43,808 nt of DNA. It comes from Candidatus Susulua stagnicola. GTDB lineage: Bacteria > Omnitrophota > Gorgyraeia > Duberdicusellales > 4484-171. The translations under genes and the position numbers were made by a program. The DNA is taken from contig JAVCBZ010000051.1 in the NCBI GenBank assembly GCA_030765735.1, positions 1 through 43,808 on the forward strand, in the 5' to 3' direction. This document shows positions 609 to 25,097 of this stretch, one piece after another (within the stretch, counting starts at the first letter, position 1; every line of letters starts with the position of its first letter). The notes under the pieces were generated by a model. It made no database searches and had not been told where the DNA came from. It was given only the letters and a program-made list of their open reading frames with translations.

Positions 609-669
609 TTTATTTTGTCTATGAATATTGTAAATGTTGGTTGTTAATTATTTTGGTTAATAGATGATG

Positions 670-695
670 AAAATCTATATTAAGACATTCGGCTG
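670..695 (+). repeat. Left copy of a perfect 26-bp direct repeat (AAAATCTATATTAAGACATTCGGCTG), a pseudo-5'-end of miaB
   Basis: Identical to 1875-1900. It is preceded by ATGATG, so it reads MMKIYIKTFG* and then stops. Confidence 0.9.
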
Positions 696-775
696 ACCGT
701 ATGCGCAAATTCCGTACGATGATTTTGAAAATAATAAAAATTATGTACAATGATGAAAATTGAAGGAAAAAGATA

Positions 776-1753
776 ATGAATGAAAAAATAAAACCAGCTG
801 CTAGTGGTAAAGTTGTTTTATACAAAACAGGTTTGCAAGTACAACTGAAGGAAGAAACTGTATGGCTTTCACAATCACAAATGTGCGATCTTTTTGATAA
901 AAATAAAAGAACAATATCCGAGCATATACGCAACATATTTAAAGAGAATGAATTGTCAGAATCTTCAGTTGTCCGGAAATTCCGGACAACTGCGAAGGAT
1001 GGCAAAGTATATAATGTTTCTTTCTATAACCTTGATGCAATTATTTCTATTGGCTACAGAGTAAAGTCACAAAAAGGCACACAATTTCGTATCTGGGCTA
1101 CAAAAGTATTGAAACAGCATCTTATTGAAGGTTACACAATCAATGAAAAACGTTTTAAAAAACAAGAGCAAAAATATCTCGAACTTAAAAATGTCGTTAA
1201 CTTGATTGGCAATGTTGTGCAGATAGAAAGCTTGCCTCTAGAAGCAAAAGGATTGGCGCAAGTAATTTCAGAATATACGAGGGCTCTTGATATTTTAGAT
1301 GATTTTGATCATAAAAAATTATCTGTACCCAAAGGTACAAAAAAGGCTAAATTTGAATTAACCTATGAAGAAGCTCGAAAAATAATTGAAGCAATGAAAA
1401 AGAAGTTTAAAGACTCTGATCTTGTAGGACAAGAAAAGGATAAAAGTTTTCAGAGCTCAATTGGCGCGATCTATCAAACATTTGGAAAAAAGGATGTCTA
1501 TTCAACGATTGAAGAAAAAGCAGCGCATTTATTATATTTCGTTACAAAGAATCACAGTTTTATCGATGGCAATAAGCGCATTGCAGCAGCTTTGTTCGTC
1601 TGCTTTTTACAAAAAAATGGTATTATGAATCGAAAAAACGGCGAGAAACGGATTGATAATAATGCGCTTGTAGCTTTAACCCTCATGATCGCCTCTAGCA
1701 ATCCGAAAGAAAAGAATATTATGGTGAAGGTAATCATGAATTTGATATGTTAA
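776..1753 (+). CDS. RhuM-like N-terminal domain fused to a Doc-type Fic/DOC domain (toxin-like)
   Basis: The N-terminus (VVRKFRTTAKDGKVYNVSFYNLDAIISIGYRVKSQKGTQFRIWATKVL) is the RhuM-family signature. The C-terminus (EEKAAHLLYFVTKNHSFIDGNKRIAAALFVCFLQKNG) carries the Doc-type motif HxFx[DN][AG]NKR. Confidence 0.85.
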   Translation: MNEKIKPAASGKVVLYKTGLQVQLKEETVWLSQSQMCDLFDKNKRTISEHIRNIFKENELSESSVVRKFRTTAKDGKVYNVSFYNLDAIISIGYRVKSQKGTQFRIWATKVLKQHLIEGYTINEKRFKKQEQKYLELKNVVNLIGNVVQIESLPLEAKGLAQVISEYTRALDILDDFDHKKLSVPKGTKKAKFELTYEEARKIIEAMKKKFKDSDLVGQEKDKSFQSSIGAIYQTFGKKDVYSTIEEKAAHLLYFVTKNHSFIDGNKRIAAALFVCFLQKNGIMNRKNGEKRIDNNALVALTLMIASSNPKEKNIMVKVIMNLIC

Positions 1754-1767
1754 TAAAAGGGGTAATA

Positions 1768-1790
1768 AAAGGGGTCAACTCCCTTTTCTT
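1768..1790 (+). terminator. Hairpin AAAGGGGTCAACTCCCTTT plus T-tract; copy 1 of a 19-nt repeated hairpin element
   Basis: AAAGGG/CCCTTT stem followed by TTTTCTT, 15 nt after the Fic stop. The same 19-mer occurs at 24557-24575 (+) and 24787-24805 (-). Confidence 0.65.
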
Positions 1791-1851
1791 CAACAATTGC
1801 GCTTATCCGAGCTAACCAAACTCAAAAATAGCTTATCAATTCAGTACATTC

Positions 1852-1860
1852 TGGTATAAT
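1852..1860 (+). promoter_or_regulatory. Extended -10 element TGGTATAAT directly upstream of miaB
   Basis: TGnTATAAT ends 8 nt before the miaB ATG, and no Shine-Dalgarno sequence lies between them. That implies a leaderless or near-leaderless miaB transcript. Confidence 0.4.
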
Positions 1861-1868
1861 GCCTGTCT

Positions 1869-2999
1869 ATGCCTAAAATCTATATTAAGACATTCGGCTG
1901 TCAGATGAATAAGCGAGATTCAGAAGCTCTCCTGGGGCTATTTGTTGATAAAGGGTATACAATAGCTACTGATGCTAAGGAAGCTGACGTAGTCTTGGTT
2001 AATACTTGTTCTGTGCGTGCTCATGCTGAAGATCGAGCAAGGTCTTATTTAGGAAGCTTTAAGAAAAAGGGGACAGTCCCCATTCGGGGACAGTCCCCGA
2101 TTATTGGCCTTATTGGGTGTATGGCAAAAAATAAGGGAGAAGAGTTATACGAAAGAATGCCTCATATTGATTTAATTTGTGCTCCAGCTAACCTTTCTAA
2201 AATACCTGAGTATGTAGAAAGGATAAAGGAAGAAGGAGCAAGGATAAAGGATCTTGAGGATAAGGAAAGAGAAGAAGACTTTTACAAAGCCGCATTTCGA
2301 CAAGATTCTAGCCATGCTCAGGTAGTAATTTCAACTGGTTGTTCTAATTTTTGTTCTTATTGCGTTGTTCCTTTTGTTCGTGGTAGATTACGATTGCGCA
2401 AGCCTAAAGATATAATTAATGAGGTAAAACGAAACATTTCTTTAGGGATAAAGAATATTACTCTTTTAGGCCAAAATGTAAATGATTATAAATTTAGCTT
2501 AGAAAAAAATCAAGTGAGCTTTGTCGATTTGTTAAGAATGGTTGAAGAGACCAAAGGTCTAGAAAATTTGGATTTTATTACTGCTGGACCAAGAAATACT
2601 TCAAAAGAATTGTTTACATTTATAGCATCTTCTTCTAAAATAAAAAAGCATCTTCACTTGCCTTTTCAGTCTGGTTCTAATCGGATTTTAAAGTTAATGA
2701 AGAGAGGGTATACTAGGGAGAAGTATTTAAAACTTATAGATAGTTATAAAAAAATTGTTGGTAGTACTGTAAGCACAGATGTAATCGTTGGCTTTCCAAC
2801 TGAGAGCGATGATGATTTTAATCAAACTAAGGATATTTTAGAGAGGGTTAGATTTAGTCATGCTTTTATCTTTAAATATTCTCCACGAAGTGCAGCTAAG
2901 AGCTTTAATTTAGTTGATGATGTGCCAAAAGAAATAAAGATAAAACATCATAAGATATTATTGGATTTACAGAAGAAAATATCACTCGGAGCGTGTTAA
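1869..2999 (+). CDS. miaB: tRNA (i6A37) methylthiotransferase MiaB, apparently without the C-terminal TRAM domain
   Basis: MPKIYIKTFGCQMNKRDSE (UPF0004 domain) and the radical-SAM motif GCSNFCSYCVVP. At 376 aa it ends about where TRAM normally begins. Confidence 0.85.
   Translation: MPKIYIKTFGCQMNKRDSEALLGLFVDKGYTIATDAKEADVVLVNTCSVRAHAEDRARSYLGSFKKKGTVPIRGQSPIIGLIGCMAKNKGEELYERMPHIDLICAPANLSKIPEYVERIKEEGARIKDLEDKEREEDFYKAAFRQDSSHAQVVISTGCSNFCSYCVVPFVRGRLRLRKPKDIINEVKRNISLGIKNITLLGQNVNDYKFSLEKNQVSFVDLLRMVEETKGLENLDFITAGPRNTSKELFTFIASSSKIKKHLHLPFQSGSNRILKLMKRGYTREKYLKLIDSYKKIVGSTVSTDVIVGFPTESDDDFNQTKDILERVRFSHAFIFKYSPRSAAKSFNLVDDVPKEIKIKHHKILLDLQKKISLGAC
1875..1900 (+). repeat. Right copy of the 26-bp direct repeat (codons 3-11 of miaB)
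   Basis: Identical to 670-695. Confidence 0.9.
2069..2102 (+). repeat. Tandem 17-nt units, each containing the palindrome GGGGACAGTCCCC, inside miaB
   Basis: GGGGACAGTCCCCATTC (2069-2085) and GGGGACAGTCCCCGATT (2086-2102). They encode GTVPIRGQSPI. Confidence 0.85.
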
Positions 3000-24556: not shown

Positions 24557-24579
24557 AAAGGGGTCAACTCCCTTTTTTT
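24557..24579 (+). terminator. Hairpin AAAGGGGTCAACTCCCTTT plus T7 (copy 2 of the repeated hairpin element)
   Basis: Identical 19-mer to 1768-1786. Followed by TTTTTTT, downstream of the MBL hydrolase gene. Confidence 0.7.
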
Positions 24580-24594
24580 CTCCGCAATCTAATG

Positions 24595-24660
24595 GCGGTT
24601 TAGGATTCGCCTAAACCGCTCTTCCCGGTTAGGCCTCGGTGTAGGCGAATCCTAAACCGG
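24595..24660. repeat. GC-rich nested palindrome doublet (REPIN-like)
   Basis: Hairpin A is GCGGTTTAGG-ATTCG-CCTAAACCGC (24595-24619). A second, inverted partial copy, TAGGCGAATCCTAAACCGG, sits at 24642-24660. Segment 24597-24611 is the exact reverse complement of 24644-24658 (15 bp), so alternative folds are possible. Confidence 0.8.
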
Positions 24661-24786
24661 GTTGTCAGGCTAAGAACTGGCAGAGGGTTAGCGGTAGGTA
24701 GAGATAAATTCATAAAACAATTAGTAAATAAGCTAAAAAGGCTTTTTAAAATGCTTAAACAAGAGTGGTCGAGGAAGGGGGCTTAA

Positions 24787-24805
24787 AAAGGGAGTTGACC
24801 CCTTT
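24787..24805 (-). repeat. Copy 3 of the 19-nt hairpin element, inverted orientation
   Basis: AAAGGGAGTTGACCCCTTT is the exact reverse complement of the 19-mer at 24557-24575. Confidence 0.9.
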
Positions 24806-24851
24806 CCTTTATTTTAAAAACCCTCTGAAAAATTAGTTTTAACAGAGGCCT

Positions 24852-24898
24852 AAAAGGGACATTTCTAAATGTGCAAAAAAGGGACATTTTTAAATGTG
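24852..24898. promoter_or_regulatory. Two tandem 22-nt units, each with a 14-bp palindrome (operator-like)
   Basis: AAAAGGGACATTTCTAAATGTG (24852-24873) and AAAAGGGACATTTTTAAATGTG (24877-24898). The period is 25 nt. ACATTT-NN-AAATGT is palindromic, and the array ends at a TTGACA (24900-24905). Confidence 0.55.
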
Positions 24899-25019: not shown

Positions 25020-25097
25020 GGCCCCATCGTCTAGCACGGTCTAGGACATATGGTTCTCAGCCATAAGACACCGGTTCAAATCCGGTTGGGGCTACCA
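25020..25097 (+). tRNA. tRNA-Glu (anticodon CUC), with encoded CCA
   Basis: Hand-folded cloverleaf. The acceptor stem is GGCCCCA/TGGGGCT (G1-U72) and the D-arm is GTCTAG..AGGAC. The anticodon stem TATGG/CCATA carries the loop TTCTCAG. A 4-nt variable loop is followed by the T-arm ACCGG-TTCAAAT-CCGGT, discriminator A and CCA. It closely parallels E. coli tRNA-Glu. Confidence 0.9.

Follow-up and report, generated by a model that had tools for sequence, protein, structure and literature searches.

Direct repeats of the end of the target gene form the boundaries of staphylococcal cassette chromosome (SCC) cassettes, and SXT, in prfC, is one of the islands that enter a gene and rebuild its 5′ end. 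In SCC and SCCmec, large serine recombinases (LSRs) mobilize tandem, partly recombinase-less and anti-phage-rich cassettes at the end of rlmH (PMC11470126). In islands with dusA-specific integrases, sequence carried by the island takes the place of the 5′ end of the target, a tRNA-modification gene, and a remnant 5′ end is left at the far junction (PMC4482086). In the tycheposons of Prochlorococcus, successive integrations at the same site push older elements inward, scattered integrase fragments and partial target copies are found, and a minority of the elements use LSRs. Finally, in the integration-dependent immunity of mycobacteriophage BPs, the attachment site is in a coding region, where recombination alters the C terminus of the encoded protein (PMC4557955). 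Here, we analyze a 43,808-nt stretch of DNA from Candidatus Susulua stagnicola, of the Omnitrophota (assembly GCA_030765735.1, contig JAVCBZ010000051.1, positions 1–43,808; hereafter the window), in which a gene for a RhuM-Doc fusion protein lies between two copies of a 26-mer that belongs to the start of the tRNA-modification gene miaB. We propose, with a probability of roughly 0.7, that one site-specific recombination site is present here in two copies, each with a 26-mer as its left arm, and is used by an LSR-run cassette system. The proposal is built on the anatomy of the locus, a breakpoint that recurs in relatives, alternative cargo in a near-identical strain, the adjacency of an LSR and two classes of recombinase C terminus.

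SCC/SCCmec is the closest analogue, sharing LSRs (Ccr), a single site at the end of a conserved RNA-modification gene (rlmH/orfX) and tandem arrays. It differs in three respects: the 3′ end of rlmH is used there and the 5′ end of miaB here, so that a cassette must supply a start codon and a promoter; here the recombinase gene crosses the site, and its C terminus varies with occupancy; and the miaB system has a single LSR, whose best solved relatives are the TP901-1 integrase and SPbeta YokA rather than an established Ccr, is hosted by Omnitrophota and is known from sequence alone. For regeneration of a gene start, the dusA and SXT islands come closest, but they use tyrosine integrases and are large and self-contained, whereas here an LSR would serve recombinase-less cassettes of 1–2.5 kb. 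Tycheposons are the closest case of accretion at one site, but they target tRNA genes, and their elements usually have their own integrase and replication genes. Integrons are alike in architecture only (one recombinase at the end of the array, small recombinase-less cassettes mostly of one function, a fixed site, and defense or toxin cargo); their IntI tyrosine recombinase, folded single-stranded attC sites and common Pc promoter have no counterpart here, where the insertion point lies in two overlapping genes. In the loci described below, the array-adjacent recombinase is of the serine type, and the cassette boundaries are miaB-start/head sites, not attC. BPs concerns a phage repressor and a tyrosine integrase, whereas here the tail of the recombinase itself is exchanged, with a regulatory role that is conjecture. 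We found no description of an LSR-miaB system in the open-access literature.

Results

Anatomy of the locus

Searching the whole window, we found two exact copies of AAAATCTATATTAAGACATTCGGCTG, at 670–695 and 1875–1900 and both on the + strand, which is where a preliminary description of this stretch had put them. There was no third copy in the window at up to three mismatches on either strand, and 100 shuffles of the window put the expected number of chance matches at zero. The right copy spans codons 3–10 and the first two bases of codon 11 of miaB (MP-KIYIKTFGC, with the miaB ATG at 1869), and the left copy, preceded by ATGATG (664–669), reads MMKIYIKTFG before a TGA at 694–696; both readings had been given earlier and agree with the sequence and with the list of open reading frames (ORFs). 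The copies are 1,179 bp apart (696–1874) with one ORF in between, and the ORF list and repeat analysis bear out the earlier statement that no recombinase, transposase or terminal inverted repeats lie between them. The left site is preceded by an NMO/FabK-like gene, of which the 3′ end is present, and to the right the operon runs miaB / TPR-SPOR / miaA / hflX. The features of the locus are as follows:

664–695, + strand: left site, miaB-start arm; ATGATG plus the 26-mer, a displaced miaB start, with the putative crossover TG at 694–695
696–763, + strand: cassette-head arm (P′, family 1), ACCGTATGCGCAAATTCCGTACGATGATTTTGAA...; positions 695–763 are open in the recombinase frame and encode DRMRKFRTMILKIIKIMYNDEN before a stop
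776–1753, + strand: cargo, a RhuM-Fic/Doc fusion of 325 amino acids (Pfam Virulence_RhuM, E = 1.6e-24; Fic, E = 1.1e-10)
1751–1791, + strand: 12-nt tandem, two copies of TAATAAAAGGGG (1751–1774) over the RhuM-Doc stop, then the hairpin AAAGGGGTCAACTCCCTTTT (1768–1791)
1833–1860, + strand: promoter-like element, TTATCA-16-(TG)GTATAAT, with 10/12 matches the best promoter-like match of the region
1869–1900, + strand: right site, the miaB-start arm now used; ATGCCT plus the 26-mer, with the putative crossover TG at 1899–1900 and the miaB body arm TCAGATGAAT... next
1869–2999, + strand: miaB, 376 amino acids, with UPF0004 and radical SAM domains and no TRAM domain; first gene of the operon

A recurrent breakpoint at the start of miaB

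Scans of genomes and metagenomes with MiaB were dominated by the generic KTFGCQMN pattern and yielded only distant relatives and L091 (L and P numbers are our own handles), and an exact-protein look-up with the window MiaB gave no match; close relatives were reached through protein clusters instead. The nearest species-level MiaB is 61% identical to that of the window.

We tabulated 21 junctions aligned on the TG that ends the repeat. All 21 share a left arm of the form ..AT.TA.AT....AC.TT(C/T)GGN followed by TG, and 3′ of the TG they continue either into the miaB body (TCAGATGAAT and synonymous variants) or into a cassette head. More than 10 junctions, from at least six Omnitrophota lineages, show the switch from the miaB-start arm to the miaB body or a head, and the breakpoint is common to L004, L005, L088, L171, L179, L181, L182, L183 and L186, which carry different cargoes. 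Independent insertions thus share sharp junctions at one fixed target position. On these alignments, the breakpoint appears to lie at, or just left of, the repeat-end TG, in miaB codons 10–11, and TG itself would be the crossover dinucleotide. Displaced miaB starts like the left copy of the window occur in L004, L171, L181, L183, L186 and L088, and an in-frame ATG is kept in 6/7 internal left arms (counted on the printed sequences), as expected if each had formerly served as the miaB start. Comparison of these sites indicates that the left copy is followed by a conserved head arm and is not merely a leftover.

Five contigs (L171–L175) encode a MiaB 99% identical to that of the window and, from miaB onward, are 99.5% identical to the window in DNA over 7.1 kb. 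Upstream of miaB they have unrelated DNA, comprising a porin-like gene, insertion sequence (IS) fragments, AbiEi/AbiEii and an MNT-HEPN pair, and the HEPN gene of L171 stops 4 nt before miaB, which begins MSLEMNGRLKIYIRTFGC and so differs from the start in the window. Window and L171 become nearly identical in the final 8 nt of the repeat (..TTCGGCTG); its first 18 nt contain six differences, and nothing aligns further upstream. Just before its MNT-HEPN pair, L171 has a site homologous to the left copy of the window and the arm that follows it, GTCTACATTAAGACATTCGGCTG/GCCGTATGTCCAAG.. (the slash marks the breakpoint), and the two heads align as GTCTACATTAAGACATTCGGCTG/GCCGTATGTCCAAGTACGTAGGGATGATTTTG in L171 and ..GGCTG/ACCGTATGCGCAAATTCCGTACGATGATTTTG in the window. 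A 49-codon ORF across this L171 site was considered as a gene and is better explained as a displaced miaB start reading into the head.

The head motif of the window precedes three cargoes, namely RhuM-Doc (window), MNT-HEPN (L171 and L005) and an unrelated gene of 333 amino acids (L005). L171 and L005 share their MNT-HEPN unit at 93.7% identity over 1.5 kb, a stretch that starts at the TG and ends shortly after the HEPN stop, with only 44% identity for the MiaB of L005. In L183, which comes from an independent metagenome-assembled genome, a RhuM-Doc of 81% identity and a GNAT gene form a pair, flanked on one side by a displaced miaB start with its head (..TTTGGGTG/ACCGTTGG..) and on the other by miaB, and the two 26-mer copies agree at 20/26 positions. 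In L004, a native-looking promoter and MSKKVFIRTFG are followed by TG/ACCGTTGGTTAC, after which come two genes and miaB. L088 has the same RhuM-Doc, hairpin and promoter as the window, and its right site then continues as ..GGCTG/CAAGATGGAAGCG.. (CAAGATGGAAGCGTCTTTACAAACC), a head like that of the second cassette of L181; this points to a further insertion that was accepted in a sister strain, downstream of RhuM-Doc. Of the two origins offered in the preliminary description, a target-duplicating or a site-specific insertion that regenerated the 5′ end of miaB, the shared breakpoint and the comparisons with L171 and L088 favor the site-specific one, and a transposase target-site duplication falls away. 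About the TG, several head-type sites tend toward imperfect dyad symmetry, with 6–9/12 complementary positions where about three are expected, and miaB-type sites are asymmetric.

A recombinase gene that reads into the site

In relatives, an LSR gene for 540–580 amino acids runs tail-first into the site and adjoins either miaB or one to three recombinase-less cassettes that lie in between. In L179, a protein of 555 amino acids with Resolvase, Recombinase and Zn_ribbon_recom domains and a YIRVST catalytic motif is encoded directly upstream of miaB and ends inside it, with the last residues ..SVPSAVR and a TGA within CAGATGA; L176 and L177 have the same arrangement. The order in L181 is UvrD / LSR / site / Fic and a 146-amino acid protein / site / DUF4172-Fic / site / miaB, with the three sites in direct order, and in L182 it is AbiEi-AbiEii / LSR / site / proteins of 354 and 117 amino acids / miaB. 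An LSR is present next to the locus in L179, L181, L182 and L188, and as a relic in L005 and L171 (in the latter a CQKNQ stump, by hand translation); it is absent from the window, where tblastn with an LSR of the family gave no match in the whole 43.8 kb.

We surveyed the C termini of the 120 best LSR homologue clusters (60–92% identical), whose source labels are Omnitrophota and also Elusimicrobia, Nitrospirota and Aureabacteria. Short endings of the form (V/A/G)(R/K) before the stop account for 69/120, and 67 of these are VR, AR, VK or AK, the endings predicted by TG(T/C)-CA(G/A)-ATG-A of the miaB motif GCQMN when it is read one base out of frame. Longer tails, which fall into a few conserved families, are found in 31/120, and 20/120 are truncated or frameshifted. 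Both of the long-tailed LSRs that we looked up, in L181 and L182, head an array. The heads examined are open for 17–28 codons in the recombinase frame and each start xR(W/M), the exception being the degenerate L005 head, which is read out of register. The tails that heads encode are homologous to the C termini of the full-length recombinases P0153, P0184, P0221 and P0235, and the tail in the window head, DRMRKFRTMILKIIKIMYNDEN, resembles DRMCKYRWMILKILEAITDCE (P0153) and DRWCKYRVMILMILEKLTDCK (P0221). The left copy in the window was also considered as the stump of an LSR gene, and this was rejected because only eight codons overlapping the 26-mer fit and two stops precede them.

In two relatives the recombinase module is flanked by inverted repeats: a module of a helix-turn-helix (HTH) gene, AbiTii and the LSR in L179 (6688–6865 and 9819–9996; 178 bp, perfect) and a RES-MerR-DUF4238-LSR module in L188 (5351–5707 and 9477–9834; 358 bp at 91%). 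Within the repeats lie the 3′ end of the recombinase gene, the miaB-start arm and a head for a DPWF(L/V)LYK.. tail. This tail is found in 11/31 long-tailed LSR homologues, and the layout of the repeats suggests that the module is possibly invertible. In L188, a diversity-generating retroelement (reverse transcriptase, bAvd and an Lcl_C target gene; 1–2034) adjoins the LSR module. Viral contigs scanned for the site pattern gave 24 GC-rich chance matches with neither LSR nor MiaB, and the same kind of scan with the LSR protein gave three distant or partial matches only; the system is therefore not evidently phage-borne.

Cargo, hairpin, promoter and upstream relic

The RhuM-Doc translation holds HSFIDGNKR, which fits the Doc-type motif HxFx(D/N)(A/G)NKR, and its residues 17–324 give a full-length match to PADLOC PDC-S23 (E = 1.6e-132), making the protein a candidate single-gene anti-phage system. 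The ORF list contains no Phd-like antitoxin upstream of it. Across the arrays the cargo is defense-like (PDC-S23, PDC-M05A/B, SoFic, AbiTii and AbiE).

The space between the repeats had been described as one gene with a hairpin terminator; the single gene stands, but the case for the hairpin at 1768–1791 as a terminator is weaker, its short stem folding no better than shuffles (z = −0.66), its sequence being a dispersed repeat and a terminator scan leaving it uncalled. Copies of AAAGGGGTCAACTCCCTTTT lie in the window at 1768–1791, 24557–24580 and 24785–24805 (inverted), and in L178 at about 9850. A 250-nt segment that contains a hairpin with 23-nt arms (24596–24659) is bordered by two inverted copies and lies just upstream of tRNA-Glu(CTC) at 25020–25097, which was the only Rfam match in the window. 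Nearby, a 78-nt element (..AAAAGGGACATTTCTAAATGTGCAAAAAAGGGACATTTTTAAATGTGG..) at 24816–24892 is 92% identical to positions 2434–2510 in the variable region of L171. The promoter-like sequence TGGTATAAT ends 8 nt 5′ of the miaB ATG, as had been noted, and the element is kept upstream of miaB in L088, L091 and L178.

One further feature lies upstream of the left site:

512–608, + strand: possible RAYT/IS200 (HUH) relic, ..YVMMPNHIDGIIII.., interrupted by stops, with an MPNHID motif seen by eye only

The preliminary description had pointed to this relic, but it gave no Pfam match at E ≤ 1 and no BLASTP alignment with the intact Y1_Tnp gene of L004, and no role for it is evident. We dropped it as the mobilizer of the cassette because its similarity to Y1_Tnp (PF01797) was not confirmed, and it is probably unrelated to the cassette. 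The distant relative L004 has its intact Y1_Tnp/RAYT gene (2188–2676, − strand) 1.2 kb upstream of its left site.

Variation within the population and within miaB

The exact RhuM-Doc protein is found on 14 short metagenome contigs, which match the window at about 99% to either side of the repeats, over positions 1–2048. Both 26-mers are present in 8/10 of the population contigs read, and in 6 of those 8 they are spaced 1193 nt rather than 1205 nt apart, because one copy of the 12-nt tandem TAATAAAAGGGG is missing. Five population contigs reach beyond position 2048, in miaB, and all are about 99% identical to the window up to 2048 and then diverge; the four that can be aligned beyond the repeat insert of miaB (L081–L084) are 87–94% identical there. 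The right-hand 26-mers of the window (1875–1900) and L088 (1504–1529) show five clustered differences (TATATTAAG vs TACATCCGT) within a shared promoter and flanks, and the difference looks like a short converted patch that made the window copies identical.

The MiaB proteins of this clade have 354–410 amino acids and only the UPF0004 and Radical_SAM domains, TRAM being absent, and the miaB stop overlaps the start of the TPR/SPOR gene. Between the two domains, the window miaB has a hypervariable insert of short repeats (2040–2100, with GGGGACAGTCCCC at 2069–2081 and 2086–2098), across which identity to sister strains falls from 99% to 93%. At this position L081–L084 have three GCTCATG units and about 100 nt, and L001 has ATTACAG/ATTACAA heptamers, which also border a four-helix-bundle gene (23S rRNA intervening-sequence protein) upstream of its miaB.

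Discussion

We propose that each site has the form (miaB-start arm)-TG-(right arm), in which the right arm would be the miaB body at 1875–1900 and a cassette head at 670–695. The cassette would comprise the head, RhuM-Doc, the hairpin, the promoter and a replacement miaB start, and would be seated in miaB codons 10–11. Normally, the LSR gene would stand tail-to-head with miaB, its last codons overlapping the first miaB codons, and recombinase-less cassettes would insert between the two. Each insertion would provide a new miaB start and promoter and would swap the ..SA-VR ending of the LSR for a tail of 17–28 amino acids encoded by the head. The LSR, which belongs to a family common in Omnitrophota and is the presumed catalyst, would recombine a head-type site (attP-like) with the miaB site (attB-like). 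Since all left arms mimic the miaB start, the products would again be one head-type and one miaB-type site, and insertion and excision would be the same reaction. The LSR could thus excise a cassette, or the cassette block next to miaB, as a circle and re-insert it, and only the miaB-adjacent block should be able to leave or enter. In the window, excision would leave ATGATG-26mer-TCAGATG and an intact miaB ORF; the predicted circle junction is CCTGTCTATGCCT-26mer-ACCGTATG (or ACCGTATGCGC), and the predicted empty site is TTAATAGATGATG-26mer-TCAGATGAAT (or TCAGATGAATAAG). Because the window has no LSR, the RhuM-Doc cassette would be either stranded or mobilized in trans, by an LSR encoded at another place in the genome, and the LSR of relatives, which reads into the site, lends support to the earlier suggestion that mobilization acts in trans or has been lost. 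Cassettes of this kind may still be mobile today.

Several observations weigh against this proposal. The first is the lack of an LSR anywhere in the window. A same-species empty site with a single 26-mer, the check put forward in the preliminary description, was not seen among the related assembled sequences, and neither was a circular junction. To the right of RhuM-Doc, hairpin and promoter both have their homologues in the miaB leader of L178, a relative with a single site and no cassette, so the right-hand part of the cassette may be native. The MNT-HEPN units of L171 and L005 differ in the miaB-start arm that follows them, which simple precise excision and integration would not predict. 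The two copies match at 26/26 positions in the window and, by eye, at 17–21/26 in L004, L171, L183 and L088; crossover at TG gives no explanation of the perfect match, which suggests gene conversion between the two sites. The model does not account for the inverted partner site of L179 and L188. The head-type site of the window itself has 6/12 dyad positions, a marginal value that about 6% of shuffles reach, and dyad symmetry is absent from heads of the CAAGATGG class. Finally, the population cassette travels with its flanks, which fits vertical descent or homologous exchange and not cassette hopping.

This last point belongs to the alternative that survives best, although we judge it unlikely: that only homologous recombination has been at work, the region upstream of miaB being a hotspot that is swapped via flanking core genes, with the left 26-mer and head as fossils of an earlier event and no site-specific process now acting in this lineage. 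The 99% identity with L081–L087 does run well past both repeats, the window is without a recombinase and the LSR survives as a relic in L171 and L005, and a native-looking promoter stands beside miaB. What such exchange leaves unexplained is that the same TG breakpoint inside the ORF recurs in many lineages, that the heads are always open in the recombinase frame and that a cassette has newly entered the right-hand site of L088. For the state of the window cassette at present, homologous exchange and the site-specific model are compatible.

We consider it quite improbable that the locus is the remnant of a complete integrative element that, like a prophage or an integrative and conjugative element, had its own LSR, and that the arrays are tandem accretions of such elements after decay. 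Tandem accretion with decay is well known for tycheposons, and the compact modules of cargo, a MerR/Xis-like HTH gene and an LSR in L179 and L188 would suit it. In L181 and L182, however, the only LSR occupies the miaB-distal end of the array, and the intervening cassettes have neither a recombinase nor a remnant of one. Nor is there room for an LSR remnant between cargo and miaB in the window, L171 or L183 (the gap is 115 nt in the window and 4 nt in L171), and distant genomes share the MNT-HEPN unit at 93.7% identity without an LSR of its own.

Transposon target-site duplications are typically far shorter than 26 bp, and although perfect direct repeats around a single gene would fit a transposon insertion or local tandem duplication, and later decay, of the miaB 5′ end, the missing terminal inverted repeats and transposase, the conserved foreign arm rather than decayed miaB after the left copy and the recurrence of the same junction with unrelated cargo leave this explanation effectively refuted by head conservation and the junction table.

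Beyond the site-specific model for the two 26-mers, we suggest more tentatively, and at somewhat less than even odds, that the window holds one unit of an undescribed, integron-like LSR cassette platform of Omnitrophota and neighboring phyla, whose recombinase-less defense cassettes would rewrite both the start and promoter of miaB and the C-terminal exon of the LSR. If the LSR tail has a function, it would signal a loaded or an empty array and might determine which way, or how fast, recombination proceeds.

Taken alone, the window offers something more modest, a well-defined cassette with two intact junctions and no recombinase nearby. If the broader proposal is true, Omnitrophota and, by source labels, some Elusimicrobia, Nitrospirota and Aureabacteria would keep, at the start of miaB, a small exchangeable store of defense and toxin genes that is served by a serine recombinase, unlike the tyrosine recombinases of integrons. 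The miaB-start arm, the TG and a head encoding xR(W/M)... would then serve as a search signature for new defense cargo in uncultured phyla. The system would also offer a natural example of attL and attR with the same function as attP and attB, and of a recombinase whose C terminus is rewritten by its own reaction, and both points would bear on how the directionality of LSRs is controlled.

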